Positions 10,648-46,942 of a stretch of 64,000 nucleotides of DNA are shown piece by piece. The notes beneath the pieces were generated by a model. That model had not been told where the DNA came from. It searched no databases and was given only the letters and a program-made list of their open reading frames with translations. The translations under genes and the position numbers were made by a program. The DNA is from Bacillota bacterium (GTDB taxonomy: Bacteria; Bacillota; Dehalobacteriia; UBA4068): NCBI GenBank assembly GCA_031553915.1, contig JAVBKT010000009.1, forward strand, positions 12,520 to 76,519, given 5' to 3'. The stretch's first letter is position 1. Each line of letters starts with the position of its first letter.

Positions 10648-11424
10648 ATGAAAAAAATAATTATGACTGTTTTAACGATAGCAGCGCTTTTAAGCTTTTC
10701 CGCTTGCAGTGTTCCCGCAGACACAACCGCTGCGGCAAAACCGCCGGAATCTCCTCAAACAGAGCAGGATGCTACTGCGGATGATGCTGCAATCGAGCCG
10801 TCTGTATGAACCTTTTCCACTACCAAGGGCTTTTCCAGCGAGGTTCATGTGCTCAGCTCGGATAAGGGAAACATCCTCATTGACCCCGGCTTTTACAGCG
10901 ATGATCTTGCCGCATATGTAGAGGAGATCGGCGGGCTTGATGCTATCCTCATCACCCATGGACACTGGGATAATATCCACGCCCTGGATGCGGCAGTAGC
11001 GGCGAACCCGGATGCCGAGGTCTATATTCACAGGCTGGATTATGACTTTCTGCGCGACCCGGTTTTGAATGCTTCTTTGCCCAACGGGTTTTCCCTGGCG
11101 GTTGAAACACAACCGTTAACCTTTGACGAAGAAGGATTTTACGATATCGGCGGCTATCATTTTGAGCTGATACACATGCCCGGGCATACCTGCGGCTGCT
11201 GTTGTTTCTATTTTGAAGAGGAAAACATTCTTTTCCGCGGCGACATGTTTATGATTCCTTTTGTCGGCTCTGCCGACCACCCTACCGGCAGCGAGATTGA
11301 CCGGGCCGCTTCCATCGAGAAATTCAAAAATTTTGGCTTTCCTGACGATTTGAAAATTTATCCCGGGCATCGCGGCAACACCACCTATGGCGAAATGTTG
11401 AAAACAAACGTTGATTTGCAATAA
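10648..11424 (+). pseudogene. Lipoprotein MBL-fold hydrolase interrupted by an in-frame TGA (10807-10809). It is a paralog of the MBL domain of 5132..6406; the downstream segment 10849..11424 is intact
   Basis: A signal peptide plus lipobox (LSFSAC) ORF at 10648..10809 is in the same frame as the MBL ORF. The residues after the TGA (TFSTTKGFSSEVHVLSSDKGN) align with TASFHVISSEKGN of the first copy. Confidence 0.5.
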
Positions 11425-11448
11425 ACTTGCAGCTTGTTAAAAATAGAC

Positions 11449-11464
11449 TGTAACCATGATTACA
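11449..11464. promoter_or_regulatory. Operator-like palindrome TGTAAC-CATG-ATTACA (site 4, one mismatch)
   Basis: Seen upstream of the PNPOx-like/SnoaL-like gene pair. Confidence 0.4.
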
Positions 11465-11522
11465 TAAATGAGTGCTAACCCATGCTAAACTGAAAATAAC
11501 AACAACTAAAGGAGCGATTGAT

Positions 11523-11930
11523 ATGATTGATTATATTGACATTATAAAACAAAACCCCAACGGCGTGCTGGCTACACAAAGCAATAGCAGTCTGGACACC
11601 AGGGTAGTGCACAGCCTCTTTGCTGAGGATAATAAAGTGTATTTCTGCACCAAAGGCGAAAAGTCGATGTACGCGCAGCTTATGGCCAACCCGGATGCGT
11701 CGTTCTGCTGCTACCCGCCCAATTATTCGCCGGTATTGACCTTAAACGGCAAAGTGTCCTTCGTGGACGATATGGCGTTCAAGACCCGTGTGATGGAGGA
11801 GAGCGGAATAGTCAAGGACAACTACCAGACTGCAGATAATCCGGCATTCAAGCTCTTCTATCTGGAAGTGGAGGAAGTCAAGCTTCACACTCCCGGAGTG
11901 AGTACAACCAGGGAGGCGATAATATGTTAG
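11523..11930 (+). CDS. Pyridoxamine 5'-phosphate oxidase (PNPOx)-like FMN-binding protein
   Basis: Small split-barrel protein pattern (NGVLATQS…VYFCT…). The start was chosen after the AAAGGAG SD. Confidence 0.75.
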   Translation: MIDYIDIIKQNPNGVLATQSNSSLDTRVVHSLFAEDNKVYFCTKGEKSMYAQLMANPDASFCCYPPNYSPVLTLNGKVSFVDDMAFKTRVMEESGIVKDNYQTADNPAFKLFYLEVEEVKLHTPGVSTTREAIIC

Positions 11931-12532
11931 ACAGGCCGATGAATAACTCCGCAGAGGATATTGCGGATAAGTTCAGTGTCAAAGAGCTGATCGAATTTGA
12001 GCGGTTTTGCCGCGACAATGCGCTGTGGGATGAGATGAAAAAGTGCTACTCCCCTGATGCCACCGTTAACATCTCCTGGTATCAAGGCAGCGGCTATGGG
12101 TTTGTGGTTGCTTCCAGCCAGATAAATCTCGTTGCCCCGCATAAAATATACAACACTCTGACATGGCTAAATGGCGATAAGGCCTTTGCCCTGACAATGG
12201 CCACTGTGGAAATCCGCCAGACTTTAGACGGCGCAGCTGTCTCGATTTGTACTGACGCCAAGCTGGTTTATCGCTTGGTCAAAAGAGAGGGTGTTTGGCA
12301 TATCATCGCCTTCACCAGCATTTATGAGAAGGATGCCATTGTGCCGGTTTATCCGAATAGGAATATCCATATTGATGCCGGCGAGCTCTCCGCCTACCGG
12401 AGCAGCTATGCCGGTATGTGCTATATGAATCACCTCGCGGGGCGGCCGACTAATGAAAACCTGCCCGGTGTTGATTGGCCGGAGCTGGTGGAGGAGCTTT
12501 ATGAAGAAGCGGGCAAATGGCTGGAAGGGTGA
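11924..12532 (+). CDS. SnoaL-like / NTF2-like domain protein
   Basis: Its start overlaps the previous gene (ATGTTAG), indicating an operon. The alpha+beta barrel pattern fits this family. Confidence 0.55.
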   Translation: MLDRPMNNSAEDIADKFSVKELIEFERFCRDNALWDEMKKCYSPDATVNISWYQGSGYGFVVASSQINLVAPHKIYNTLTWLNGDKAFALTMATVEIRQTLDGAAVSICTDAKLVYRLVKREGVWHIIAFTSIYEKDAIVPVYPNRNIHIDAGELSAYRSSYAGMCYMNHLAGRPTNENLPGVDWPELVEELYEEAGKWLEG

Positions 12533-12607
12533 GCGTGGTGTAAGCAAGCTAAGAGTGACAGCAAAACTTACCACAAATTATAGCCAATAGCCAACAAATC
12601 TATCTGC

Positions 12608-12647
12608 ATACAAAAACCCCTCCCAACGATAAAGATTGAGAGGGGTT
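12608..12647 (-). terminator. Rho-independent terminator for the CHAP endolysin gene (hairpin aacccctc / gaggggtt plus a T-run on the minus strand)
   Basis: Stem-loop flanked by an A-run on the plus strand, which is a T-run on the minus strand. Confidence 0.6.
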
Positions 12648-12687
12648 AAATAGGGCTGCCGTGAGCAAACCCGGGCAATTTTGATAG

Positions 12688-13410
12688 CTATTTTTTCATA
12701 TCAAGAATACCCGCGGCCAGTTTATCATACAAAGCAGCGGCGAATTTGTAGCCGTCCAAGTATTTCATGGTATTATCATCCAGCCCAGGGGCAGCCTGCA
12801 CCATTTCTCTGCTGGTGGTAATAATTAGGGCCTGATATAGCTTGTCATAAAGCGCAGTGGGCCAGAGGTGCTTATCCAGATAGGCCATGGTGTTGTCATC
12901 AAAGCCGGTCGTCTCTTGCACATATTGGCGGTGGTTGTTTTCTTCTTCTTTGTATTCAGGTATGCAGTACCCCTTAATCCAGGAATTGTTCAAGGCTCTG
13001 GTGCGGCGGTAAACGCCGTCGCCATTGGGATTATTGCCGTCCTGGCTGGTATTGCCTTCAATAGCTGTCACTGTTTTGCCGTCGCAGCTCTCCACAATGC
13101 CCACATGAGAATTAGTGCCATAAAGAATAATATCTCCGGGAGCAGGAATATAAGCGCCTTTTGCTTGGTAGCGGCCTTTTGCTTGGTAGTAACTCTGATA
13201 ATCAGGCACCCAGGCGGTGCGGGGAATGATGCCGGAGCAATTATTGCTGCCAAGGATGCCGGCCCCATCCGCGCACCAGGATATGAAATAAGCGCACCAC
13301 GGCTGATAGTTGCCGCCAAAAGCTGCGCCGTATTTATTATTATTGTTTGCTCCTTCTTTGTAGCCAACCTCAGCGGCGGCTAGGCGGAGCATGTTTGTTC
13401 TGTCGGACAT
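12688..13410 (-). CDS. CHAP-domain peptidoglycan hydrolase (endolysin-like) with two C-terminal repeats of about 30 aa; no signal peptide
   Basis: The N-terminal segment QPWCAYFISWCA … HVGIVE matches the Cys/His CHAP pattern. Two C-terminal repeats have the form DDNTM.YLD…ALYDKL. Confidence 0.75.
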   Translation of the reverse strand: MSDRTNMLRLAAAEVGYKEGANNNNKYGAAFGGNYQPWCAYFISWCADGAGILGSNNCSGIIPRTAWVPDYQSYYQAKGRYQAKGAYIPAPGDIILYGTNSHVGIVESCDGKTVTAIEGNTSQDGNNPNGDGVYRRTRALNNSWIKGYCIPEYKEEENNHRQYVQETTGFDDNTMAYLDKHLWPTALYDKLYQALIITTSREMVQAAPGLDDNTMKYLDGYKFAAALYDKLAAGILDMKK

Positions 13411-13528
13411 GGATTCACCTCGTTGATTATTCGTAAAATATTGATTTTATTTGTTTACTCGGTTAGACTTTACTAATCTGAGCGAAAGGGAGAGAGCTAC
13501 GGCTGTCTCCCTTTTCTTTTGCTTGCCT

Positions 13529-13816
13529 CTAGCCGGCAGTTTCTTCCGGGCTGTTTTCACTGCTTTTCAGCTGTTTATACACCTGATTGACTCCAGTTGC
13601 AGCTAGGCCGGAGACTATACCAATGGCAATAGCGGACATGATATCCGTGGCCGGGAAATCCGGCACAATTTCCATGGCTACCACGCCCAGCGCTGCTCCT
13701 GCTACGCCACAAATAACCGGCAGCCACTTGTTATCAAGCGGGGTGGCCTTGATTGCCTGAGCAATCAAATAACAAATAACGGTAATTGCCGCAAAGCTCG
13801 CAATTCCTAATTCCAT
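13529..13816 (-). CDS. Holin-like small membrane protein
   Basis: 95 aa with three predicted TM helices and a charged C-terminal tail. It sits immediately upstream (same strand) of the signal-less CHAP hydrolase. Confidence 0.55.
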   Translation of the reverse strand: MELGIASFAAITVICYLIAQAIKATPLDNKWLPVICGVAGAALGVVAMEIVPDFPATDIMSAIAIGIVSGLAATGVNQVYKQLKSSENSPEETAG

Positions 13817-14031
13817 AATTAATACCTCTCTTTCTCAGCGCCAATATTTTTTGCAAAAGTCTTTGCTAAACGCAAAAACATGCTATTCAAGACACCGCCC
13901 GGTATGGAAAACCCAGGCGGTGTCTTGTGCGGATATGGCGCTAAACTAGCTGTTAGCTGAATCCGCGGTGGGATTCTGATAGATAGATGTCTCTTGCGAT
14001 CTCTTGAAAAAAGATAAGATCAATTTAGAGC

Positions 14032-15756
14032 CTATTTGAATCCGCGGCCGGATTGCGGTACATAAAGGCCTGCCTGGCCATCTGCTGGAGTAGCAGTAGG
14101 CTCATAATCTGCTGGATCAAATGCAGGATTCAAGTGTTGCTCAGGGAACGGATCCGGATGGATCTCTATATCATGCATAAAACGATTAATCAAAGCTTCG
14201 TCAACATGACCCATACAGTAAACATGGTTATACTCACGCTGCTCTCCATCAACATATACTACTTCCGCCGATAAAGAGTACTTAAAAACAAGATCCGGTG
14301 CCACTTTTTTAAAGCGGACCGAAAAGGTATTTGGAGTATGTTCTACCCATGTCTCCATCAAAAGTGCCCTTAGTCTGCTGGTGAGAATATTTGCCGCTTT
14401 TTGTGAGTTATATGTTTTTTCCTTCTCAGTATCATAAGAACGCTTGGCGATATAATCCCATAAGACCATGGCAGAAAAGCCGTTGCGGGAACCGGCCAGC
14501 GTACTGTCGGGAGCGCCCAAATAATGCGGGTTCGAGGGCGGCTTCAGCTGATATTTAGTCTTGGACATATACACTCCGCAGGGCCAAGGCGCGCCGGGGT
14601 ACTTATGCCCGCTCATGGTAATAGAGCATACCTCATCTATGCGGAAATCAAATACTGGGAAGTCGGTAGAATCTGTCATTTCCTGGTAAGGCATATATCC
14701 AGCGCCCAAAGCCCCATCTATATGGACCCAATAGTTATTTCTCTCCCTGGGTATACCTATGTACGGATCAAAGCCGCCCGCATCTGTAAGTAAATAGTCT
14801 TCCTTAAGTGCGTTTACCGCATCTAGTACGCGGTCGTAGGCCCCTTTAAAAGTAGTGCCATAATTGAAATTGAGGATAATTGGATAGCCCTTTTCAACGA
14901 AAAAATGAACTAACCTTACTAAAGATTTTATGCAAATGCTACCATCCAACTCAGAGGGAACTTCACGCGGCCAACCGCTCGTCGGGTCAATACCTTGCTC
15001 TGAATATCCATCAGGATAATCATGAACATCAGGATGAGTAGGATTCCACCTTAACGGGCACTTGTCTGTAGGACTGGCTTTGGTAATTTGACTACCCAGT
15101 TCATAAAAAGTGGGGATTTCAAACATCTTCATACATTTGATCACAGAATAGTGCGTATCCTGAGAATAAAAAGCAACAGGGGTATACATATTCTCCGCAG
15201 GCGGAGGAGGCGTTTCCGGCCGATAGGTTAAAATGCGCGGCTCTACTGCATACGGGGTTCCTGGGTTTGCCAGACTTGCCTGTCTTGCCTGCTCTGCAGC
15301 CTCCGGATCAGGTAATAATTTTTTGCCCTGCAGATAATCGCGCGCATTCCAAAAGCCAAAAATATTGGATTCTGAAGAGCCCATCGAAACCACATAGCCC
15401 CAGTAGCTTTCCGGATCATGTTCGTCGTGATAACGATGTCCTTCAGGTATATGCCACAATTTTGCAAAATAATCAAGTACCTCACGTTCCATAAATTTGG
15501 TATTGGTAGTGAAATTCCCTTGAGTAAATGGATCGCCGATATTATTGATTTGAATGTTTAAATAGTCTTGCAAGGAATCCTTATAATTTACATCTTGGTT
15601 TGTCTGATAGCCAAGAAAATTGATTTGTTGCTGAGTTTCATATGCTTTTAACTGTGCATGAGCATCTTTATACTGTCTCTCCGGCATCTTCCAATCTGTG
15701 AGCTCAAAGAGACTAGCATCTATGCCCGGCACTTTTGGATATGGTTTATCTGTCAT
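14032..15756 (-). CDS. Pyridoxal-phosphate-dependent decarboxylase, group II (histidine-decarboxylase-like); no signal peptide
   Basis: SMGSSESN matches the (S/T)GGTEGN-like loop, and SGHKYPGAPWPCGVY matches the SxHK PLP-lysine motif of PLP-dependent histidine decarboxylases. 574 aa. Confidence 0.75.
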   Translation of the reverse strand: MTDKPYPKVPGIDASLFELTDWKMPERQYKDAHAQLKAYETQQQINFLGYQTNQDVNYKDSLQDYLNIQINNIGDPFTQGNFTTNTKFMEREVLDYFAKLWHIPEGHRYHDEHDPESYWGYVVSMGSSESNIFGFWNARDYLQGKKLLPDPEAAEQARQASLANPGTPYAVEPRILTYRPETPPPPAENMYTPVAFYSQDTHYSVIKCMKMFEIPTFYELGSQITKASPTDKCPLRWNPTHPDVHDYPDGYSEQGIDPTSGWPREVPSELDGSICIKSLVRLVHFFVEKGYPIILNFNYGTTFKGAYDRVLDAVNALKEDYLLTDAGGFDPYIGIPRERNNYWVHIDGALGAGYMPYQEMTDSTDFPVFDFRIDEVCSITMSGHKYPGAPWPCGVYMSKTKYQLKPPSNPHYLGAPDSTLAGSRNGFSAMVLWDYIAKRSYDTEKEKTYNSQKAANILTSRLRALLMETWVEHTPNTFSVRFKKVAPDLVFKYSLSAEVVYVDGEQREYNHVYCMGHVDEALINRFMHDIEIHPDPFPEQHLNPAFDPADYEPTATPADGQAGLYVPQSGRGFK

Positions 15757-17395
15757 AATTATTTCTCCTTTTTATTAATTGTTTTAATCATTTGATATGT
15801 GTTCATGGTATGTTTAGTAGAATATAGGGGTAAATTTAATGCTTGTTATAGATGTTTGTCATGCAGAGAACAGGGGATATTATTATTTTCTTCACCACCT
15901 CCTTTCGTATCTGACAGCTTGGACTTCTGCTGCAATGATGCACTGACATCCGGCAAAACACCTGTTTAGACGGATGCAGCTTTGTCATGTAGCCCTCTTG
16001 CCCAGTTGCCCGGAGTCATGATTGTCCCAACCTTTGCCTATAGCATTTGCCTATAGCGTCTATCCCCTGCCAAAACCCTGATAGTAATCGTTTATGCGTG
16101 GATTATCGCAGGAGCAGCGCTGGCAATTGCTGCTGTTTGCCAATACTGGGGACAATATTAAAACCCATGCTCATGTCCCTTTCTACACACAGGGCAAAAG
16201 CATGTCCATATCAAGCTGCAACCGACAATTCCTTCCTGGCCAAATACACTCAAAGCAGTATCATGATCAATTGAATATTCTTTTGAATACTCTTCATTAA
16301 TTAGTTTTGCCTATGTAGTATTTGGTTTAGCTGCTTTTTTGCTGGCAGGGGTGTCATCCGCACCCCTGTAGCTTAAATCTGCAGGGAAGAATGCTGTGCG
16401 TGTTACAGCAAAACAGCACAGGGTAAAAATAAGAAAAAATGACTATATATCTAAATGTTGCTTTTATACTCTGATTAATATAAGTTGTCTTTTTATCTTT
16501 CGATAATTGTTTGCGTTTCAAAAAATTAGTCAAAATATTATGAAAAATAATTTTATTAATATATTGACGTTTTCATATCTTGTTTTGTGGGTTTTTGTAA
16601 CCAGATATGCAATAATTCACTATCTGATTAATCCGGTATATTTTTATATTTTTATCTTTAGCTGGCAATATCTTCTGATTGTCAGCTTATATGCAATTTA
16701 GTGTAAATTTTTTATGTGAGAACACTTGCTAACTATAAGGTATTCTCAATAAATATTATTATAAATCAACTTTATATAAAAAATTAATATAATATAATGA
16801 TGGTATACTTAGCTAAGTTTACCCTTATAAAACCTGCTAAAATACTATTACGGACTAAAATTTATAACAAAATATGACTCTAATCCACAATTTCCATCAA
16901 TTTGTTACAAAATATTTCGGTACTACTAATACTATTAACTCGCAATTTTGTTACACATATTTACGAAAAAAGAAATATTTTTTTATTTTTGTAACATTTA
17001 ACATTCAATCCTTAGTCATCAGCTCTGCTGCTGGCCAATATCTTCCCTACATCGTTTACTAGTATGGCTAAGCTTATACAGGCGTTTTTAACAGCCAATA
17101 ATAAAATAAGCTTATCCCCCTCCCTCTCTATCATATGTGAGGGCAAACACTATTGTGCGGTAAAAAAATTCTTACCCTGTCAAAAAACAGACTTGCGGCG
17201 CTTTGATAGCCTTCGTATGCGGGGAGAACTTAGCACAGCCAGGTTGCAGTTTGAATTTATTAGACAGTACATTAGCTCGAATTTGTCAATTTTTATTTCA
17301 GCAAAAATATGATAAACTAAAAAATATTACGAGATATACGCGATTTTGGTATTTTATCACTCAAATATATCTAAAAAATTCAAGGAGGTTATCGC

Positions 17396-19798
17396 ATGCT
17401 ACGCATATTGAAACGTAAATCAATCTTATTTTTTGCACTGGTGCTTGTCCTTGTGCTGGCGCTGATGCCTCTGTCCGCTTCCGCGGCAGGGCCGATCACT
17501 ACCGAAGTGGCTCTTACAGAGGCAATTGAAGCGGCCTCTGGTTCCACCACACTGGAGCTCGGAGCAAACATCACCCTGAACTCTACGCTCGCGATCCCAG
17601 CCGGCAAGGACATCACTCTTATTGGCAGCTACAGCTTGATCGGCGCAGATGGGGTGGCGACCATCACTGTCAACGGCACCCTGACACTAGATGGCATAAC
17701 CGTTACCCACACGAGCGACGAGAGCGGCAGAGGGGTGCTTGTCAATAGCGACGGCGTCCTGATTCTGCAAAGCGGCGAGATTTCCGGCAATTCAGACACC
17801 GCAGCTACTGCACATGGCGGCGGGGTGTACCTAGACACAGACGCCACTTTTACGATGAATGGCGGTACCATTTCTGAAAACACCGCAACCGGCAATAGTG
17901 GCGGCGGCGTATTCATAGGTGCAGACGCCACTTTCTCGATGAGCGGTGGCACTCTTTCTGAGAACACAGGACACCACGGCGGTGGTATCTATAGCTCTGG
18001 CGGAACGATCACCCTGTCCGGCACTGCTGCAATAAATGAGAATATCGCCACCAAGGATGGCGGCGGCATATACAATGATAACGGCGCCGTTATTATGGAC
18101 GGCGGCACGATCAATACTAATACGGCTGTAGCCACCGGCGGCGGCGTGCGCAATAACGGTGAAGCAGCCTTCACGATGAATGGCGGCGAGATTTCCGGCA
18201 ACATCTCTGATGCAGATGTTGGCGGCGGCGTTTGTAATACCGACGGCGTGACCTTCACCCTGACTGGTGGTAAAATCACCAACAACACCTCCAATAGCTA
18301 TAGTGGCGGCGGCATCGCCAGCCGCGGATCCACTTTGATCATGAGCGGCGGCGAGATTTCCGGCAACACCGCGCCTGAAGGCGGCGGCGGTATATTGAGC
18401 TGGGAAGCGAACAGCAGCTTTACCATGAGTGGCGGCATCATTTCCGGCAACACTGCCACGAATAGCGACAGCAAGGGTGGCGGCGTATACAATTTTGGCC
18501 CCTCGGTCTTTATCATGACAGACGGCGCCATCACCGCTAACACCGCTGGCAGTGGCGGCGGGGTATATGAAGAAGCCAGTGGCACCTTCACCATGAGCGG
18601 CGGCGAGATTTCCGGCAATACGGCAGCTACCAGCGGCGGCGGCGTCTATACTGCTGATCCGCTGACCATCGGCGGCACAGCAAAGATCACAGATAATCTG
18701 CTCGCAGGCACAAATACTGCCAGCAATCTTTATCTTTGTGACGGCATCTACATCACCCCCGGCTCGGGCGATATTGCCCCGGTTGACGGCATGAGCGTAT
18801 CTGTGCAAACCGCAACTTCAAGCGGCGCATTCATCGCCTTCGGCGCAGGCACGGATGTTGTGCAGTATTTCACTTCTGACGACAGCAGCAAAGCCGCAAA
18901 AGTAGTGGGCGGCGAACTGGTGCTGGTGGATGCAGCGCAAATCACTATCACAGTTTATCAAAACAATAATCTTTGGCATAACCACGGCAAGGTATTTTAT
19001 CTGGAAGCGGACAGTGACCAGAGCCAATATCCGTGTATCGGCACCAATAGCACTGTGACTGTATCTGTCCCCATCGGAACATATTACCTCTACGACCAGG
19101 ATGGCTATACCAGAACTATGATCGAGGTTACAGATTTATCTCCCCTAACCACATCAGTCAATTACATTGAGTATGACCCCTCCCGCATTACCCCGATAGC
19201 CTTCGATGATACTACACCTGATGATACTACACCTGATGATCAGGGACGTCCTTTTGTTGATGTCCTTGCTACTGATTGGTTTGATGCTGATGTGATGTAT
19301 GTCTACGAAAAAGGACTCTTCCTCGGCACAGACGCCATTCATTTTTCACCTTACGGCATCACCACCCGCGGCATGACTGCTACCCTGCTCTGGCGGTTAG
19401 AGGGCAGTCCGGCGGCAACAACGGCAAACTCTTTCCTCGACGTTAACTCCGGCAGCTATTATCAACAGGCCATTGCCTGGGCAGCGGCGAACAACATTGT
19501 TACCGGCTACAGCAGCAGCCAGTTCGGCCCGGATGACCCGGTTACCCGTGAGCAGTTTGCGGCGATTCTCTACCGCTACGCTGCTTATAAGCAAATCGAC
19601 GTTTCCGCTCAGGCTGATCTTAGCGTCTTTAGCGATGCGGGCAATATCAGCAGCTATGCTGTGTCTGCAATCAAGTGGGCTGTTGCCGCCGAGCTCCTGC
19701 AAGGCAACAGCAATAACATGATCAACCCCTCTTTGCCAACTACGCGCTGCGAAGTGGCTGCCCTGCTCCACAGATTCTGTGAGCAAGTGGCAAAATAA
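17396..19798 (+). CDS. Secreted right-handed beta-helix repeat protein with three C-terminal SLH domains (cell-surface / S-layer associated)
   Basis: Signal peptide, then about 14 repeats of roughly 22 aa (GGxISxNTAxxxGGGVY), then three SLH modules (FVDVL…, FLDVN…, FSDAG…). Confidence 0.85.
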   Translation: MLRILKRKSILFFALVLVLVLALMPLSASAAGPITTEVALTEAIEAASGSTTLELGANITLNSTLAIPAGKDITLIGSYSLIGADGVATITVNGTLTLDGITVTHTSDESGRGVLVNSDGVLILQSGEISGNSDTAATAHGGGVYLDTDATFTMNGGTISENTATGNSGGGVFIGADATFSMSGGTLSENTGHHGGGIYSSGGTITLSGTAAINENIATKDGGGIYNDNGAVIMDGGTINTNTAVATGGGVRNNGEAAFTMNGGEISGNISDADVGGGVCNTDGVTFTLTGGKITNNTSNSYSGGGIASRGSTLIMSGGEISGNTAPEGGGGILSWEANSSFTMSGGIISGNTATNSDSKGGGVYNFGPSVFIMTDGAITANTAGSGGGVYEEASGTFTMSGGEISGNTAATSGGGVYTADPLTIGGTAKITDNLLAGTNTASNLYLCDGIYITPGSGDIAPVDGMSVSVQTATSSGAFIAFGAGTDVVQYFTSDDSSKAAKVVGGELVLVDAAQITITVYQNNNLWHNHGKVFYLEADSDQSQYPCIGTNSTVTVSVPIGTYYLYDQDGYTRTMIEVTDLSPLTTSVNYIEYDPSRITPIAFDDTTPDDTTPDDQGRPFVDVLATDWFDADVMYVYEKGLFLGTDAIHFSPYGITTRGMTATLLWRLEGSPAATTANSFLDVNSGSYYQQAIAWAAANNIVTGYSSSQFGPDDPVTREQFAAILYRYAAYKQIDVSAQADLSVFSDAGNISSYAVSAIKWAVAAELLQGNSNNMINPSLPTTRCEVAALLHRFCEQVAK
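19205..19234 (+). repeat. 15-bp tandem repeat x2 (gatgatactacacct) encoding a DDTTP-DDTTP linker inside the SLH protein
   Basis: Exact direct duplication seen in the sequence. Confidence 0.8.
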
Positions 19799-20824: not shown

Positions 20825-22573
20825 TCAATTTGCTTTCAGCGGACCAAAGCCAGCGTTAACAACACATTCTTGACCGGCTTCGCTAAGCATGTATTTGACC
20901 ATCTGGCGGGCAGGCGCATCCTTTGGCGTATCTTTGCGCAAAGCAATATAGCTGTTGTTCGAGAGCGGATAGCTGCTGTCCGCAATGCTCTTGTCAGTGG
21001 GGTATATGCCATCTATGGCCAACAGCTTCAGCTCTGTCTTAGTGTCGTAGAACATATCCATGTTCTGATAATAATAGTAAATGCTGTAGCCCAGCGCATA
21101 ACCAAGCGGTTCTGTAGTTTTGGCGTTCATCACATCCGTGAGGACATTTGCCATAGAGACAGAGGTCGTCTCGTTTCTGATCTTCGCATTTATTTCGTGA
21201 CCGTACAGGAAATGGCGTTCCATCTGCGCATGGCTGCCGCTGTCATTATTTCGGCAATAAGGATAGAGCAGCGCATCCGGTCCGCCGATCTCCTTCCAGT
21301 TAGCATAGGTGTTGTCCACATATATCTTGCTGATCTGAGTCGAAGTTAGTCCGGTGGCGGGATTATCAGCATTGGTAAAGAAGATCATCGCATCATAGGC
21401 AATGGGGATCAGTTCCAGCTCAACGCCCTTTTCCTTTGCCAGTGCCAGGATGTCGCTGGCCGGATATACCGAGGCAAACACCATATCCACCTCGCCCGCG
21501 ATCAGCCGCTCATAGGAGGCGTAGCTCTTAGAGTGGGCGGCAGGCATCGCGGAATGCCGGTACCCATTGGAAAACAGGCTGCGGAAAACCTCTTGCGTAA
21601 AGGGATAGGTGGAGGTAGAGCCGTCAATAATCGGCATGGCCTGATCAAAACCGTACGCCACCGCAGCCTGCGAGGGATAGATCTGATAGCTCTCAATCAG
21701 CCGCCACAGCAGATGCGCCGCCTCAAAACGGGTCGCGGCCTTTTGCGGAGTGGCATAGTGCGCCATCACTACCTCACCCTCGGCGCCTACCTCCCCAGTC
21801 TCTACCCCGTCTGTGGGCACATCTGAGCCAAAAACAGCATAGGCAGGCAGCGCCCAAGCAGAGATAGTCTCCGCATCCCGCAGGGAATAGGCTGCGGTTA
21901 CGTCTTCGGCAGTCACCCTTTCATTTTTCTCCTGCAAACCCGCTGTCCACAGGGCCCGGGCGGCCATAGTCACAAATTCCTCGCGCGTCACCAGGCGGTT
22001 AGGGTTAAACAGCGTGGCTGAATCGCCCTGGATAATGCCATATGCTTTTGCTACTGCAACAACATCAGCATACCATTCTTCCGCCGGCACGTCGCTAAAG
22101 CCTGCCGGTTCAGCGTCTTTTGTCTCAAGACCAAGCATACGGATGATCATTGCCGTAGCCTCAGCGCGGGTAATATTGGCAAAGGGCAGCGCCTCGCCCT
22201 TGCTGTTCCCTTTGATGATGCCCTTATAAAAAAGTCTTTCCATCATGCTAAACTCGTACTGGGCGGAAATGTCGTCAGCAAAGGTGATCTCCTCGGCCAT
22301 AAAAGCCTCAATTTTCCGCTCGGCATTATCCGTTGGCGCCGTGGCAAAAAGTTGTCCGTCGTAATAATAGGACAAGGGGATTGGCGTTTTATCATCAATA
22401 TAGCGGGCGACCAGACGGTTGGATTCACTAAACCTAAGCTCTCCCCCTTGCGGGTAGGCGATGCTTAATACGGTGAACCCGCTATCTGTTTCCGCGGCAG
22501 CCAGCGCCGCCGGAGTGCTGATACCAAGCAACAGGACACAGCATACCATGATGTATAATATTTTCTTTTTCAT
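20825..22573 (-). CDS. Secreted protein with SLH domains fused to a PstS-like (PBP-like_2) phosphate/anion-binding domain
   Basis: Signal peptide; SLH-like segments (FSDVPAEEWYADVVAVAKAYGIIQG…); C-terminal domain IDGSTSTYPFTQEVF… typical of PstS-family binding proteins. Confidence 0.75.
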   Translation of the reverse strand: MKKKILYIMVCCVLLLGISTPAALAAAETDSGFTVLSIAYPQGGELRFSESNRLVARYIDDKTPIPLSYYYDGQLFATAPTDNAERKIEAFMAEEITFADDISAQYEFSMMERLFYKGIIKGNSKGEALPFANITRAEATAMIIRMLGLETKDAEPAGFSDVPAEEWYADVVAVAKAYGIIQGDSATLFNPNRLVTREEFVTMAARALWTAGLQEKNERVTAEDVTAAYSLRDAETISAWALPAYAVFGSDVPTDGVETGEVGAEGEVVMAHYATPQKAATRFEAAHLLWRLIESYQIYPSQAAVAYGFDQAMPIIDGSTSTYPFTQEVFRSLFSNGYRHSAMPAAHSKSYASYERLIAGEVDMVFASVYPASDILALAKEKGVELELIPIAYDAMIFFTNADNPATGLTSTQISKIYVDNTYANWKEIGGPDALLYPYCRNNDSGSHAQMERHFLYGHEINAKIRNETTSVSMANVLTDVMNAKTTEPLGYALGYSIYYYYQNMDMFYDTKTELKLLAIDGIYPTDKSIADSSYPLSNNSYIALRKDTPKDAPARQMVKYMLSEAGQECVVNAGFGPLKAN

Positions 22574-22969
22574 CGATACCCCTCCTTAAAAAGAACATCT
22601 AGTGACGTAAGCAGTGAGCAAAGCGGATGAGTTATTGATTCCACTCCCCATAATATAAGCATTACAGAGCAGCGGGAGCCTGTAAATACATGCAGCCAAA
22701 TCAAAATATCCGCATAGCTGTGATATTATACCATCGCCGCTTGCGGATATGCCTCCGTTGCCAAGAGGCGATCAAGTATATAAAATAGATGCTCCGCCCG
22801 GAATCGAAGCTTTTAATTTTGTAATATTATATCATACAGCAGATAAATTTACCATGTTCATTAAGGCAATATAGTGCACATCTTCGCCATAATATACATA
22901 AAATAAGGTATATAGTTTTAGGCAAAATACTCAGCTGTCATCTTAATGTCAGTTTTTGAAAGGGATAAA

Positions 22970-23593
22970 ATGAATAACTGCAAATATTATAAGTCTTTAT
23001 CCGGCCGTTGCTGTTTGCCGGGCTCTGCCTGCCCGCGTGCAATACCCGGCCCAACCGGCCCTAACGGCGCAACAGGTGCAACAGGCGCTACCGGGCCCAT
23101 GGGAGAGCCAGGTCCGGTTGGGCCAACCGGACCATCTGGGATGACTGGCGGCAAGCTTAGCTTTGACACCATCACGCCCATTCTGCTATCTCCCTCTAAT
23201 CGCGCCTTTGCGACTGAATGGCCTGTTATCCTTGAGGATTTTGGCCTTACCTTTGATTTGAGCAATCCGCAAAACCCTTCTTTTGGCGGCGGACCGGCAG
23301 TTTATACGCTTATTGTCAATCTGGCTGTGGGCATTGGCTCAAATTTCCCGGATGAGCAAATGAATTTAGACCTGTATGCCAATGGTGTTTTCCTTTCGCG
23401 AGATATTCTATATACGCCAAGCAATCCACCAAAAATCATGCTCTTTAAGATCACCACTCTCTATCAAAGTAGCGATGATCCTGTGACATTGCAGGTGCAA
23501 TTAACTTACCCTTTTAATGCGAATTTCGTATCGGCCTTAGTCTATCCTGCCGACTCCTACCTCACTGTCCAAAAATTTGTTTTTCCCGTCTAA
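22970..23593 (+). CDS. Collagen-like triple-helix repeat protein with a C-terminal globular domain (BclA-like exosporium/spore-surface protein)
   Basis: About 12 GXY triplets (GPTGPNGATGATGATGPMGEPGPVGPTGPSGMTGG), a Cys-rich N-terminus and a C-terminal domain of about 140 aa. Confidence 0.75.
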   Translation: MNNCKYYKSLSGRCCLPGSACPRAIPGPTGPNGATGATGATGPMGEPGPVGPTGPSGMTGGKLSFDTITPILLSPSNRAFATEWPVILEDFGLTFDLSNPQNPSFGGGPAVYTLIVNLAVGIGSNFPDEQMNLDLYANGVFLSRDILYTPSNPPKIMLFKITTLYQSSDDPVTLQVQLTYPFNANFVSALVYPADSYLTVQKFVFPV

Positions 23594-29989: not shown

Positions 29990-30635
29990 GTTGTTGCCTC
30001 CTTGGCATATTATTTTGTTTGCTCTTTGGCTTTGGAGCTTTCGGGTAGCCATTAGGGATGCGAATTCATGTGTCTCAGACGGCATCTGATCAAGCCGGAG
30101 CTAGTGCATTGCCCAGCTCAACCATCAATCCACCGGGATGTCGGCAGTTTTGGCTGAAAAACAGTGAGTAGATCTTGATGAAAAAATTGTTTTTCGTAGT
30201 ATATCTACGGGGAATACTTTTTTCATTAAGAGATGCCAGCGTTTTTCAGAACCTACCTGGCCTTTGCTTCACAAAGTCACAGGTAATGCACTAGCTTCGC
30301 GTCGCAAAACCACATGTGGTTCGAATTTCTAATGGCTAAAGCTCTTTTTAATTTTATACATATTTATCTTTTTATTATTTGACAATTAAGTAGTTTTTTG
30401 TAATTTTTTATACTTCTTAAATATTGATCAATATTTTACATAAAAAACATAATAAAATAAAAAAATTTATCTAATATTAATTCTTATATTAAAATATCAG
30501 ATAAACACATTTAATAATTAAATTAATTATAAATAATTACAAAAAATAAATAGCTCACATTTATATAAAAAAATATTTTTGTAATTATTTATAGTTTTAG
30601 AAAAAATTTTTGTACTATTAATTATGGTAAAATTT

Positions 30636-31205
30636 TTACCAAATTCCTTTTTGGCATAAATCAACTATAGTGATGCCTTGATCGACTTTTTGGCTAAAGG
30701 CATGGCAACAGCGGTCATATTCATCAAAAAGCTGCCTTGCCCTTTGCGGGTTAGCATATACCTTCCAATGTCCACGCAAAAGATAGTTTTGGCCCCGGTT
30801 GCGGGCAAAACCATAAAAATCAGCCAGCGGATAGCCCAAAAACAGCCCGATTTCATGAGGGAAATTAGCTTTAGCCTTAAACCTTTGGCGCAAATAAGCC
30901 AAATTAATATTAATTTCTCCTGTCCCGGGATAACCACAGCCGAGCAAAATAGCTTTAATCTGCCTGCTATTGATTATCTCACTTAATTGCTTTTGCCGAT
31001 AAACCAAAAGCAAAGCGTATTGCTCACACTGATAGATGATCTTGAAAAAAATATCTAGTTTGTTTAAATTTTTATTATAGATATCAACCAGGCTCACTAG
31101 ATCAGGATATTTTTGCCAATGGCAAGCCACCAGGTTAGCCGGTTTAAGCCCGGCCAAGGCAGGCGCACAAAAATGCGCCAATATTTGATCAAAGCTACGC
31201 GCCAT
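30636..31205 (-). CDS. DUF3793 family protein (paralog of 46394..46942)
   Basis: Shares LAxxCxPxL..KPA, FPHE(I/V)GLFLGYP.AD..GF and G.WKVY with the second copy. Confidence 0.7.
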   Translation of the reverse strand: MARSFDQILAHFCAPALAGLKPANLVACHWQKYPDLVSLVDIYNKNLNKLDIFFKIIYQCEQYALLLVYRQKQLSEIINSRQIKAILLGCGYPGTGEININLAYLRQRFKAKANFPHEIGLFLGYPLADFYGFARNRGQNYLLRGHWKVYANPQRARQLFDEYDRCCHAFSQKVDQGITIVDLCQKGIW

Positions 31206-31295
31206 CTCTTTTTCCCCACAAACTAAGCCTGCTTTGGCTTATTGTTTGAAGAAAAGCAGCGCGATATGCAGCAAAAATATACTCATTATTGACGG

Positions 31296-31331
31296 CGCCC
31301 ACAAAAAACCAGCAGCAAAATTTTGCTGCTG
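31296..31331 (-). terminator. Hairpin accagcagcaaaa / ttttgctgctggt with T-run
   Basis: 13-bp inverted repeat seen in the sequence. Confidence 0.5.
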
Positions 31332-31393
31332 GTTTTGCATCCTTTGCCTGTTTAAAGATCACGGCAAAGCCAGTTCTCTTTCACATTTGCTTA

Positions 31394-31753
31394 TTATATA
31401 ATAGCCGCTCCCAGCTGCCTTGCTTCTTCAAGAACGGGGTTACCGATAATATCACCGATTTCATTAACCCCGCCTGCCAAAACCTGGCCAATGTCCTTCC
31501 AGTTCAGCTGCTGCAAAATCTGTTGATAATGCTCTACTACATGAGAAAAACCGTGCCCTTCAGCTGCCATCATCAAGATGCACTCTTTAAGCGGATTGCG
31601 GTAATTAGGATTGCTTTCCGCCACCGCAAACAGACGATCAAAAGCACATTTAAGCTGGCCGCTAATGCTCCAATAATAAAGCGGAGAAGCCAGAACCACA
31701 ATATCCGCCTCTTGATAGGACGGGTATATCTCATCCATCCCAAAAAGCAGCAT
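31394..31753 (-). pseudogene. Flavodoxin-like-fold (NAD(P)H-dependent FMN reductase / WrbA-like) gene fragment with only the C-terminal part present
   Basis: 119 aa matching the C-terminal half of flavodoxin_2-type proteins (IVVLASPLYYWSISGQLKCAFDRL). A stop codon lies immediately upstream and there is no N-terminal FMN-binding loop. Confidence 0.45.
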
Positions 31754-32437
31754 CTATTGTTAATGTGTACTGTTGCTGACGCTATACAAGGCTTGCAAAC
31801 AATATATGATAATTTACTGATACTGGAAAAACATCTAGAAAATAGCGATATTGATAGCATGGAAAAACAATTTATTGCTTTGTCAAACCATAATTACACC
31901 GCAAAAGATTAACTATATAGTCTTAACAAATCTACTATTATCAATCAAGAGGCCAATTAAACACAAACCACCTCCCACTTACGTTTAGTAGAATAGATGT
32001 ACATCATTGCCACATTATTTCCAGAAACACTTGTTACCATAAAGAAAGAAGCCCCGGCGCTTGGCTGGGAGCTTCTTTCTTTATGCTGCTATCAACAGGC
32101 TAACATGAATGCTATGGAACAGTTCAAGTTCTTGATAGCAATGCGCAATAAAGGCAACCCGAATGCCTCTATCACCGGGAATTATTGGCATGATCAATAG
32201 TAAAAATTGCTATCTGATATTGACCACTTGTGGGCAAAAAATAGACAAAAAATTTTAACTAATTCGAGCTTATTATAACATAATTGCGGCTTGGGCAATA
32301 GTAGATTTGATCTAATTAAGCGCTTTGGCGCATTGACACTGCGGCCAAAAAAGGCGATAATATTTATTAACCAAGCTAAGCTGCAAACAAGCGAAATTTT
32401 CACGTCTGGCCAGAGCGCTGGCAGAAGAGGATGAAAA

Positions 32438-32905
32438 ATGAACGATTATAATTACAACTATAGCCCGCCAAAACCACAGTTGCAGGATGAGCTGGCTTAT
32501 GTGCAGAAAAATATTGACTATTATAACGGTCGCTGGGGTTCAGCCATGGGCTCCAGATATAAAGGCTGGAATTTTGTCTGCATGTTTTTTCCCTATGAGT
32601 GGATGTGCTACCGCAAAATGTATTTAGAAGCTTTCTTGTCATTTGCAGCAGTATTTGCCTTAAACTTTGCACTCTTTTTTATGCCCAGCGAGGTCTTTGT
32701 CTGGGCGATACGTTTGGCTTTTGGCGCAGTGGGCAATATGCTTTATTGGCGCAAAAGCCAACGGATGATTAAACGCACTGACGCTATGGACGACCAGGAT
32801 CGTCTGGAATTTTTGCAGGCAAAAGGCGGAACCAGTATCCCCGGCCTAGTTATCTGTGTAGCGCTGGAAATGGGCTATTTGTTTGTGATCTATTTTCTGC
32901 TTTAA
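32438..32905 (+). CDS. DUF2628-like small membrane protein
   Basis: 155 aa with a Tyr/Asn-rich N-terminus followed by two TM helices. Confidence 0.5.
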   Translation: MNDYNYNYSPPKPQLQDELAYVQKNIDYYNGRWGSAMGSRYKGWNFVCMFFPYEWMCYRKMYLEAFLSFAAVFALNFALFFMPSEVFVWAIRLAFGAVGNMLYWRKSQRMIKRTDAMDDQDRLEFLQAKGGTSIPGLVICVALEMGYLFVIYFLL

Positions 32906-32943
32906 CAATATTTGGGCTTGCTTGTCCATTTATCTACATATGC

Positions 32944-32976
32944 AAAAAAGGCCAAGCATGTTTGGCCTTTTTTGCA
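32944..32976. terminator. Bidirectional terminator (aaaaaaggccaa / ttggcctttttt)
   Basis: Perfect palindrome with poly-A and poly-T flanks. Confidence 0.75.
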
Positions 32977-33034
32977 TACGAGGGGAATTTTGAAGCTTTT
33001 TATACCATGAACACATTTAGAAGGAGGTCAATTA

Positions 33035-33511
33035 TTAGTCACTAAGAGCATTATCTATCAATAGCATCAACTCTAGTGCACTGCGAAAGCTGATTTCCAG
33101 ATTCTTGTCCATCCACACCAGGCTACCCTGCCAACTGGCATTTTTACGGAAAACAACTTTAACAGAAAAGGTTGCCAGCTTGCCACAAGGGATATTCACC
33201 TCAACATCCCTCTTGATGCCAGTCTCTGCGGCTTCCTTTTGGTCCAGATCAGAGCCAAAACCTCGTTTTTGAGAAAAGGCTTGCGGGTATCCTGTATCAT
33301 CCAGCAATTGTTCCTGCAAAAGAAGCAGTTGCATAGCATTATCAAAAGTTTTCTCTTTGGCATAATATGGATGATAAAACACGCCCGACAACCTTTTTTC
33401 ATCATAATTATTAATAGCCACAATACTGGGGCTACTGATGGTAGAAAAGGGTACGTTTGTCATAGGCTGTTTTTCCATAGAATTTGTGCATGCTAAGCCA
33501 AAACTTAACAT
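33035..33511 (-). CDS. Hypothetical protein
   Basis: 158-aa ORF with no recognisable motif. Confidence 0.35.
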   Translation of the reverse strand: MLSFGLACTNSMEKQPMTNVPFSTISSPSIVAINNYDEKRLSGVFYHPYYAKEKTFDNAMQLLLLQEQLLDDTGYPQAFSQKRGFGSDLDQKEAAETGIKRDVEVNIPCGKLATFSVKVVFRKNASWQGSLVWMDKNLEISFRSALELMLLIDNALSD

Positions 33512-34145
33512 CCTCCGATGTTATATAGTAGAACCTGATAATAATATTTTAGAAACAAATTTCTTTCTCTAAAATCAATTATACTAAACAAAAGTTACAT
33601 TAAAATTACATTTCGCATTTTTCTTTACATTTATTTAATAATTTTATAAAATATCACCAAGAATTCTCATTAACACACTAAGGGATCGCTCGACATAGTC
33701 CTAATTGCCGAACTTTATAATGGAGGTATTACCTGACTTAAGATATCATTGTCTATAAACACGGAGGTTATACATTAAGCGTTTGTATATAAGTATTATT
33801 TACTCAAATATTATAGTTAATTTTCCTTTGCAAAAAAATATTTAAAATTGCCAATCTGTCAAGAATATAAACACTATTGGCAATATGAACGGTGTTTTTG
33901 CAAAATTAAACCACTAGCAAAAATCTCTTAAAATAAAATCCATATTTTTATCTAATTCTTCAAAATAATTAATTATTAATATTTATTATCACTTAATCTT
34001 TACCAAACAGATATAGCTATGCTATAATTATAATAACTTTATTTTTACACATTTTTGGCAATAAAATTTATTGTCAATTTCATAGATAATGTATCTCAAA
34101 ACTGTGTTAATAAAATATCTCACTGCGTTTTATGGAGGTTTCGCA

Positions 34146-36759: not shown

Positions 36760-37626
36760 TTAGCCGGAACGGTAATGCAAGTAATCGAGAAAACGCTGCA
36801 TGGCCAAAGAGAGGGAATTACGGTCTTTCATCACCAGGCCGATTTCACGAAAAGCCGGAACATCCAGCTCCTTGGTGATAATCTTATACGGCGCTCTCTG
36901 CAGGATCAGCTGCGGCAAGATGCTAATACCCATTCCGCTTTCAACCATTGCCATAATGGCATAATCATCCCAAGTAGTAAAACGGATATCAGGGTTGATC
37001 TTATGCTGCTCAAAAACGGCGGCTATTTCACCCTTGGCGCTCTTTTCCATCAGCATAAAGGGATAATTTGCCAGCTCTTTGACCGGGAACTTTTCACAAG
37101 CGGCCAGCGGATGATTTTCCGGCAGAACTACCAGCAGGGGATCTTTCTCAATAAAAATATTCTCCAGCCGCGCATAGCCTGGCAAACGCAAAAACCCACA
37201 GTCTACTCTACCCTCGAGCGCCCATTGCTCAATCTCCAGATAATCACCAAGCAGCAGTTCAAACTCAATCCCCGGATAATCCGCGCTAAAAGCTTTAACG
37301 ATATTGGGCAGCCAATGTGTCGCAACACTGGAAAAAGTACCAATACGCAGCAAACCGCTGGCTAAACCCCTCAGCTCATCTACAGCTGTCAGCAAACGGG
37401 TATTTTTTTCGCAAACCTCTCTGACGAAGGGCAGCAGCTCTAGCCCATCAGAGGTAAGATGCACACCGCCAGGATTGCGCTTCAACAAAGAAACGCCCCA
37501 CTGCTCCTCCAAATCATTAATCATATGGCTGATGCCTGATTGGGTATAGCCGAGCATGTCTGCAGCTTTGGTAAAACTGCCCTGCTCTGAGGCTTTAATA
37601 AAAGCCAGATACTTGGCTATGCTCAT
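36760..37626 (-). CDS. LysR family transcriptional regulator
   Basis: N-terminal HTH FTKAADMLGYTQSGISHMINDLE plus a LysR substrate-binding domain. It is divergent from the DMT transporter gene. Confidence 0.9.
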   Translation of the reverse strand: MSIAKYLAFIKASEQGSFTKAADMLGYTQSGISHMINDLEEQWGVSLLKRNPGGVHLTSDGLELLPFVREVCEKNTRLLTAVDELRGLASGLLRIGTFSSVATHWLPNIVKAFSADYPGIEFELLLGDYLEIEQWALEGRVDCGFLRLPGYARLENIFIEKDPLLVVLPENHPLAACEKFPVKELANYPFMLMEKSAKGEIAAVFEQHKINPDIRFTTWDDYAIMAMVESGMGISILPQLILQRAPYKIITKELDVPAFREIGLVMKDRNSLSLAMQRFLDYLHYRSG

Positions 37627-40612: not shown

Positions 40613-40797
40613 CGGCTACAAATACAGTTTCCGCATAAAGCAGGGTAGCAAAAATCAAGTATTACATATGCGAATAATCATATTGACAGCAGTGCTAATA
40701 TTATCGAAAAGTCTATTGAATAATTACATAGCTATTGGTATAATTAGAAAGAATTACTGCAATTATGCACTATTTTGCCTTGAGGATGCTGTTTTTT

Positions 40798-46393: not shown

Positions 46394-46942
46394 ATGTGCA
46401 CAAATCTGCAAAAAACCCTTGCCAAACATTGCGGACCGGTATTACTGAACAAAAAACCGGCAACATTGCTTTCTTTGCCCCGTGCAGAGCGCAAAGAGGT
46501 GCTGGCGCTTTCCGGCAACCATATTAAGGCAGCAGTATTACGCTTTAACCAGGACAAGGATCTACTGTTGCTTTATCAGCCCCAGCTGCTTGAGGCAGCA
46601 TTAATGCACGAAGAGGCCGTGGAAATTCTCACCCGCTTTGATTATCCGCTGGGGCAAGGGCTAGCCAGGATCATCCACCATTTGCGCCTGCGGATTAGCG
46701 CCAGTGCGGAATTCCCGCATGAGGTGGGCCTTTTCCTTGGCTATCCGGTAGCGGACGTGGCAGGATTTATCGAACACAAAGGCCATAATTATAAAATTGC
46801 CGGCGACTGGAAGGTTTATGGCAGTGTTCATTTGGCGCAAAACCTTTTTGTTGAGCACCGAAAATGCCGCAACTATCTGCTGCACTATGTGGAAAACGGC
46901 GGAAACCTTCATAGCCTCTGCTTCAATATGACAAGTGGCTAA
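46394..46942 (+). CDS. DUF3793 family protein (paralog of 30636..31205)
   Basis: Conserved FPHEVGLFLGYPVADVAGF and GDWKVYG motifs. Confidence 0.7.
   Translation: MCTNLQKTLAKHCGPVLLNKKPATLLSLPRAERKEVLALSGNHIKAAVLRFNQDKDLLLLYQPQLLEAALMHEEAVEILTRFDYPLGQGLARIIHHLRLRISASAEFPHEVGLFLGYPVADVAGFIEHKGHNYKIAGDWKVYGSVHLAQNLFVEHRKCRNYLLHYVENGGNLHSLCFNMTSG

Follow-up and report, generated by a model that had tools for sequence, protein, structure and literature searches.

A phage-type holin and CHAP endolysin pair, probably an orphan lysis cassette, beside a long decarboxylase gene in a Bacillota genome

The locus described here lies in a 64-kb stretch of DNA from a Bacillota bacterium (GenBank assembly GCA_031553915.1, contig JAVBKT010000009.1), hereafter called the window, and comprises three intact open reading frames (ORFs) on the minus strand between positions 12688 and 15756, encoding a pyridoxal phosphate (PLP)-dependent decarboxylase, a holin, and an endolysin with a CHAP domain. 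With a probability of about 70%, the holin and CHAP genes represent an orphaned lysis cassette of phage origin, which either survived as the end of a prophage or was captured as a phage fragment and is a chance neighbor of an independently acquired decarboxylase gene. The original prediction had named three same-strand genes of these families at this place, which agreed with the ORFs and profile matches listed below, and had offered two readings, a headline of decarboxylase export by the holin and endolysin and a fallback in which the pair is all that is left of a prophage lysis module after decay. The fallback is the one favored, because the closest relatives of both lysis genes are found in phages and the holin-to-CHAP layout recurs in viral contigs.

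12688 to 13410, minus strand: endolysin, 240 amino acids (aa), without a signal peptide, N-terminal CHAP domain and C-terminal repeats (PF05257, E = 8.9e-12; PHROG "endolysin," E = 6e-29)
12706 to 12924, minus strand: C-terminal repeats of the CHAP protein, residues 163 to 235 (internal alignment score, 86)
13529 to 13816, minus strand: holin, 95 aa, Hol44/Phage_holin_5_2 family (PF16079, E = 3e-22; PHROG "holin," E = 1e-21)
14032 to 15756, minus strand: decarboxylase, 574 aa, group II PLP-dependent, of the long L-methionine-decarboxylase-like family (PF00282 Pyridoxal_deC, E = 2.6e-17)

The claim of a holin with three transmembrane segments was upheld by the profile search it had called for (PF16079, 79 bits against a cut-off of 29.2; PHROG 1129) and by a hydropathy scan, which located three hydrophobic segments at approximately residues 1 to 25, 30 to 52, and 56 to 77. 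The gene is preceded by the ribosome-binding site GAGAGG. The protein is 63 to 66% identical to the holins of Flavonifractor phage Chenonceau and of gut phages, and 155 relatives with identities up to 76% were present in IMG/VR viral contigs. When the segment from 12533 to 17395 was compared with deposited phages, the holin gene was the only DNA with similarity; comparison with the viral loci delimited phage-like DNA to 13545 to 13837, which covers the holin ORF and its ribosome-binding region, and to part of the CHAP gene.

In the CHAP protein, the catalytic residues Cys39 and His102 are invariant in the homolog alignment, and neither a hydrophobic N-terminus nor a membrane segment was detected in the hydropathy scan. 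It has 445 viral relatives. Its closest relatives are 53 to 66% identical and mostly approximately 212 aa long, and those with available context are encoded on small phage contigs, beside terminase, portal, or capsid genes or with an integrase gene elsewhere on the contig. The C-terminal 80 or so residues consist of two tandem 33-aa repeats with the pattern G-[FL]-DDNTM-x-YLD...ALYDKL, which are missing from the aligned CHAP relatives. No Pfam match was obtained for the C-terminus and no PDB sequence match for the protein; in the structure prediction, the CHAP domain had high pLDDT and the C-terminus consisted of low-confidence helices with values of <60. The repeats presumably form a wall-binding module, a candidate for a new type of wall-binding domain that may be of specialist interest.

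Among 80 viral loci encoding relatives of the holin, five carried an adjoining gene for a CHAP-domain endolysin, in one case with a gap of 117 nt compared to 118 nt in the window, and these five endolysins are 26 to 33% identical to the CHAP protein of the window. The closest phage relatives of the CHAP protein are not paired with a Hol44 holin. Judged from these sequence relationships, both lysis genes are of phage ancestry and the holin-to-CHAP order is a standard phage lysis layout; since the closest CHAP relatives, at 53 to 62% identity, come from other small phages without this holin type, the present pair is a mosaic, a common situation in phage lysis modules.

No other part of a phage accompanies the pair. 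Pfam and PHROG profile scans of the larger ORFs over the entire window yielded no capsid, tail, terminase, portal, or integrase gene, leaving 12.7 kb of phage-free DNA on one side of the cassette and 48 kb on the other. The earlier statement that phage genes are lacking within 10 kb thus holds for the whole 64 kb, and on this basis the lysis pair is labeled orphan or remnant. The window contains ordinary chromosomal genes, among them those for transporters, oxidoreductases, SLH-anchored wall proteins, signaling proteins, and arginine deiminase. It has no tRNA genes and no Rfam families at gathering thresholds; the 1.64-kb decarboxylase leader and the spacers were searched for riboswitches and T-boxes, and the single match was a spurious snoRNA (E = 0.4). 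PADLOC detected no defense systems in the trio or its neighbors.

Linkage between the decarboxylase and the lysis genes was sampled at 80 decarboxylase loci, taken from a collection that has one genome for each species, with flanks of up to 10 kb where the contig allowed, and the sample was extended to 85 loci by five contigs carrying the nearest decarboxylase homolog. Searched by tblastn with both lysis proteins, none of the 85 loci contained a holin or CHAP homolog, the sole match being the window itself. Clustering of the three neighbors on either side of 81 decarboxylase loci gave no conserved partner (the biggest cluster occurred in nine loci), and the Pfam contexts of the closest homolog, of Clostridium tetani, and of another Firmicute included sigma factor/anti-sigma, peptidase S41, peroxiredoxin, EF-G, and glutamate dehydrogenase genes and no lysis genes. 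The decarboxylase was encoded in none of 160 viral loci, of which 80 belonged to holin relatives and 80 to CHAP relatives. A search of 2.9 million viral contigs yielded no sequence of the long decarboxylase family, only matches of 25 to 27% identity over approximately 360 residues on long viral contigs.

The relatives of the genome gave the same result. The SnoaL-like gene flanking the locus has 77 to 78% identical orthologs in three NCBI assemblies; the PNPOx-SnoaL pair is kept in all three, and the block Crp-amidohydrolase-MatE-DUF2316 in one, with 60 to 84% identity. Without DUF2316, the shared proteins are 76 to 84% identical in amino acid sequence. The decarboxylase, holin, and CHAP genes are all missing within 10 kb in each of them, and the downstream genes differ from one to the next. 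In blastn comparison of 11401 to 17500 with two of these relatives (L096 and L097), nucleotide similarity stopped at 12533, which places the trio in lineage-specific variable DNA. The three-gene arrangement whose presence in other genomes the original prediction had wanted checked was therefore found in neither sample.

The absence of a conserved connection between cargo and cassette tells most strongly against the export headline. In this reading, the trio is a type 10-like release system with the decarboxylase as cargo: the decarboxylase promoter would fire strongly, some transcripts would pass the hairpin that follows the gene, and the holin and CHAP protein, co-expressed by this read-through, would release the folded decarboxylase from a subpopulation of cells, through lysis or by nonlytic translocation. 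We consider this extremely unlikely. The three genes do share strand and order, and the stated absence of signal peptides from the decarboxylase and the CHAP protein was borne out by the hydropathy scan, which found no hydrophobic N-terminus in either. Most bacterial proteins, however, have no signal peptide, so a signal-less neighbor does not discriminate, and type 10 secretion cannot be diagnosed from a solitary holin/endolysin pair beside such a protein alone; conserved linkage is what discriminates, and here the linkage is unique to one genome, without phage-borne homologs of the decarboxylase. Clostridia do release toxins via holins, and a MaeB-like metabolic enzyme was reported to be holin-linked in Serratia (PMC9527704), but the same review rests the argument for a cargo on strict genetic linkage and is skeptical of the MaeB example. 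If the export reading were true, amines would be produced outside the cell in a gut or anaerobic community, and for the first time in a Gram-positive bacterium a metabolic enzyme would be the cargo of a holin/endolysin system resembling the type 10 secretion system. Prophage lysis genes are often found orphaned or in cryptic form, and there is no sign here that the pair is tied to the neighboring gene.

The DNA between and around the three genes carries the following features.

12533: synteny breakpoint, one base past the stop codon of the SnoaL-like gene
12615 to 12647, minus strand: strong intrinsic terminator 3' of the CHAP gene, a 13-bp stem followed by UUUUU (terminator scan and fold)
13485 to 13514, minus strand: smaller hairpin in the holin/CHAP spacer (fold; z = -2.2 for the spacer)
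13888 to 13927, minus strand: hairpin in the decarboxylase/holin spacer with a GC-rich 15-bp stem, 14 pairs being Watson-Crick and one G-U in RNA (inverted repeat I15)
13958 to 14002, minus strand: imperfect relic copy of the 3' end of the decarboxylase gene (repeat D3, aligned to 14035 to 14083)
15757 to 17395, no strand: gene-free divergent intergenic region of 1.64 kb and 33.7% GC between the decarboxylase gene and that of an SLH-domain wall protein

All three genes have good ribosome-binding sites. The decarboxylase stop codon is separated from the holin start by 215 nt, and the spacer between the holin and CHAP genes measures 118 nt. The minus strand of the 215-nt spacer showed no promoter-like site. 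The 101-nt stretch holding the hairpin at 13888 to 13927 folded with -41 kcal/mol (z = -5.5), and none of 200 shuffles was as stable; the hairpin is probably a terminator-like or RNA-stabilizing element. Its U-run begins approximately 10 nt past the stem and, not being adjacent to it, is passed over by a strict terminator scan. The export reading can draw on this arrangement, with no canonical terminator between the decarboxylase and holin genes and a strong one after the CHAP gene, yet the stable 15-bp stem stands between the supposed cargo gene and the holin gene. A further point against export is the lack of a TcdR-like sigma factor or other dedicated regulator: none is encoded within approximately 10 kb of the cassette, the nearest regulator genes being Crp (54 to 557) and LysR (36760 to 37626).

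The relic duplicate extends over 47 nt and lies 79 nt downstream of the original. It is in register, stop codon included, reading ..IYLSESHRGFS-stop against ..LYVPQSGRGFK-stop in the decarboxylase. Within the window, the 10-mer CCGCGGATTC occurs only in the relic and at 14038 to 14047, and two or more matches were seen in none of 100 shuffles; the alignment score of the 47-nt duplicate was matched by 2 of 500 shuffles. The duplicate is probably a recombination or insertion scar, and the decarboxylase 3' end looks like a junction that has been rearranged in the past. As a pair of attachment (att) sites of the cassette, the repeat was rejected, because both copies lie upstream of the holin gene and do not flank the cassette. 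The contig L098, which is 100% identical to the window, ends at 13991, 41 nt past the decarboxylase stop codon.

On the other side of the decarboxylase gene, the intergenic region from 15757 to 17395 carries the promoter-like sites of this gene and no convincing ORF, and neither this leader nor the spacer showed similarity to the loci of homologs, to phages, or to plasmids. A perfect inverted match of 16 nt connects the holin gene (13687 to 13702, coding for AGAAL) with the leader (16108 to 16123). A second, decayed holin in the leader was sought by tblastn and six-frame reading and discarded, and the match may be due to chance or be the trace of a small membrane-peptide gene.

In base composition, the holin and CHAP genes do not stand out, with GC content, GC3, and codon adaptation within 0.8 standard deviations of the 42 other genes of the window. 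The decarboxylase gene has a GC3 z-score of -2.3 relative to the window genes. Codon signatures thus separate the decarboxylase from the lysis genes and reflect different histories, which speaks against a common export unit as well.

The decarboxylase matched PF00282 with 63 bits (cut-off, 27). It has no hydrophobic N-terminus and no transmembrane-like segment by hydropathy and is a cytoplasmic protein. Its best match among solved structures was the L-methionine decarboxylase of Streptomyces sp. (PDB 7CIF, 557 aa; E = 6.3e-106), with residues 10 to 530 aligned to residues 23 to 547 of chain 7CIF_A, N-terminal region included, whereas solved histidine decarboxylases aligned only to the core at residues 291 to 481 (E = 7e-27). 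The designation as histidine-decarboxylase-like, for which a profile classification had been suggested, did not survive it: the protein scored 210.6 bits in the NCBIfam equivalog NF002748, for which the cut-off is 305, and matched in two stretches only. Nor is it unusually long, with N- and C-terminal extensions of approximately 150 aa, as had been supposed. Approximately 575 aa is typical of the family, and the extensions are common to the solved L-methionine decarboxylase. More than 1,000 homologs were retrieved from 5.8 billion proteins; the best 120 are mostly approximately 530 to 610 aa long and include proteins of Clostridium tetani, Heliobacterium, Nostoc, Sorangium, and Streptomyces. 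The nearest is just 57% identical, and the family is distributed patchily across phyla, which suggests horizontal transfer.

Across 23 homologs, the PLP-lysine motif SGHK385 and the residues H202 and D347 are invariant or nearly so, and their retention indicates that the enzyme is probably active. Its relationships make methionine or a branched-chain amino acid a more likely substrate than histidine, and in the favored explanation the product would be a volatile or biogenic amine made inside the cell. An extracellular role is not known for PLP enzymes acting on free amino acids, and what is known of the family would not suggest one for this protein as a cargo, another reason to doubt export.

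Proteins of approximately 575 aa from this family are commonly labeled histidine decarboxylase in clostridia, cyanobacteria, myxobacteria, actinomycetes, and planctomycetes. By sequence this label is probably wrong, and other amines are likely made, because the family is nearer to the L-methionine decarboxylase of 7CIF and fails the histidine decarboxylase equivalog cut-off. Many of its members end in a conserved VPxxGRGFK tail that is missing from the solved enzyme. The nearest homolog (P0003, on contigs L002 to L006) has 549 aa and no GRGFK tail, and a displaced copy of the tail was sought in its lineage and not found. Approximately 0.84 kb downstream of the decarboxylase gene, this lineage carries an element with DEAD-helicase, AAA ATPase, and serine-recombinase genes, so that the 3' flank of the decarboxylase adjoins mobile DNA there, too.

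The position of all three genes in variable DNA raises the possibility that they arrived together, with or without the AT-rich leader, on one mobile element that has since been reduced, the decarboxylase having been a phage "moron" or auxiliary gene. Compatible with such co-arrival are the lineage specificity of the entire segment rightwards of 12533, the patchy spread of the decarboxylase family, and the scar at the 3' end of its gene, and cargo genes often adjoin phage lysis modules. Phage morons, however, usually lie downstream of the lysis genes, whereas the decarboxylase gene lies upstream of them. Together with its deviating codon usage, the absence of the long family from the viral contigs, and the count of zero in both the 80 holin and the 80 CHAP viral loci, this makes a shared arrival very improbable.

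In the favored explanation, deletion of a prophage would have left its lysis end behind, or illegitimate recombination would have captured a phage fragment. The cassette would sit in a part of a Clostridia-like chromosome that is specific to the lineage and prone to rearrangement, and the decarboxylase gene would have been acquired independently, its adjacency being coincidental. In a phage, a late promoter some distance away would drive the lysis genes; with this promoter lost, the cassette would be silent or be expressed only weakly, by transcripts that start at the decarboxylase promoter and run on through the hairpin. If it were expressed, the three-segment holin would be predicted to accumulate in the membrane and open holes, after which the folded, signal-less CHAP endolysin would get to the wall, presumably bind it through the repeat module, and cut peptide bonds of the peptidoglycan, and the cell would lyse.

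Several observations weigh against this explanation. Both lysis ORFs are intact, with good ribosome-binding sites and catalytic residues kept, in a place without any other prophage trace; neutral decay would eventually break the ORFs, so that either the deletion was recent or something maintains the cassette. The host-like codon usage of the lysis genes fits a long residence and equally a phage adapted to the host. Direct repeats flanking the cassette, as would be expected of the att sites of a former prophage, were sought and none was found, nor were integrase remnants. The lack of an adjacent U-tract at the hairpin would permit co-transcription of the three genes by read-through. Finally, the species is represented by one assembly and two sequencing runs of identical sequence, which bears on how far the arrangement can be called stable within it.

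The same intactness would be expected of a lysis cassette that the host has domesticated for a purpose of its own, without connection to the decarboxylase, and that is under selection for controlled autolysis of a subpopulation. It could serve the release of extracellular DNA or biofilm matrix, wall turnover, lysis of the mother cell, or the release of a bacteriocin, tailocin, or toxin whose gene lies elsewhere. Apart from the retained ORFs, catalytic residues, and ribosome-binding sites in the absence of the rest of a prophage, the host-like codon usage is consistent with this, the C-terminal repeat module missing from the phage relatives could reflect adaptation to the host wall, and the DLP12 lysis module of Escherichia coli provides a precedent (PMC7918800). 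Against it, the cassette is missing at the syntenic site in the three related genomes, no recognizable promoter or regulator is attached to it, and intact genes are equally expected soon after a deletion. Domestication is therefore possible but unlikely, and the orphan cassette of phage origin is retained as the preferred explanation.

Other features of the window concern its surface proteins, composition, and signaling genes. The genes at 17396 to 19798 and 20825 to 22573 encode proteins with SLH domains, namely, a repetitive, Gly-rich surface protein of 800 aa and a PBP-like binder, which indicate an S-layer or an SLH-anchored cell surface. The 800-aa protein was dismissed as a phage remnant, because its endolysin PHROG match runs via the SLH domains only. 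A 215-aa collagen-repeat protein (22946 to 23593) gave tail-fiber PHROG matches solely via its Gly-X-Y repeat (residues approximately 25 to 70) and was for this reason likewise set aside as a prophage remnant. A low-GC patch (0.33 to 0.41) at 30000 to 34000, with ORFs lacking Pfam and PHROG matches (31289 to 31912 and 33035 to 33511) and a DUF3793 gene, is possibly another acquired island; a second DUF3793 paralog lies at 46394 to 46942. At 40765 to 42909, a 714-aa protein combines a phosphotransferase system (PTS) EIIC domain with a C-terminal EAL domain (cyclic di-GMP phosphodiesterase), an unusual fusion of transporter and signaling functions.

Compared with the known enzyme 7CIF, the Streptomyces L-methionine decarboxylase, the decarboxylase of the window has the same long architecture, homology over the full length, and the PLP-lysine motif. 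The relationship is distant by alignment, and the window protein has an extra C-terminal tail of approximately 40 aa ending in GRGFK, which is common to Firmicutes and cyanobacterial homologs. We take the Streptomyces valine decarboxylase VlmD to be a member of the same family. The activities of VlmD are described in PMC7794544, and such enzymes turn Met, Val, Leu, or Ile into primary amines in the cytoplasm.

With the type 10 systems, namely, Serratia ChiWXYZ, Salmonella TtsA, the Yersinia Tc toxin cassette, and Clostridioides difficile TcdE/TcdL, the locus shares an isolated holin and peptidoglycan hydrolase beside a signal-less protein encoded on the same strand (PMC9527704, PMC10847048). 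The holin lies outside a complete prophage, and the adjacent peptidoglycan hydrolase has no signal peptide. In those systems, different strains or species share the linkage of cargo and cassette, the cargo is an extracellular chitinase or toxin, and a dedicated regulator is usually present; none of the three applies to the window locus.

The DLP12 lysis module of E. coli (essD-ybcS-rzpD/rzoD) is conserved and transcribed and affects wall and vesicle physiology (PMC7918800). Like the pair described here, it is a phage-derived holin and endolysin that stayed intact in a chromosome after loss of lytic capacity, with host roles being possible (PMC7918800). In DLP12, a large part of the prophage has survived, along with spanins and a Q-like regulator, whereas in the present locus only two genes are left, in a Gram-positive-type genome and without a regulator.

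The closest counterparts are the lysis cassettes of Clostridia phages, such as Flavonifractor phage Chenonceau and gut viral contigs. The pair in the window differs from them in having no surrounding phage or prophage genome, in the hairpins before and after the holin gene, and in the unique C-terminal repeats of the CHAP protein. It agrees with them in the Hol44 holin family (63 to 76% identity), in a signal-less CHAP endolysin with the Cys-His pair, in gene order and orientation, and in the spacer (117 nt in one viral contig versus 118 nt), and it thus combines a recognized holin family with an adjacent, co-oriented endolysin whose catalytic residues are intact, as a phage lysis cassette does.

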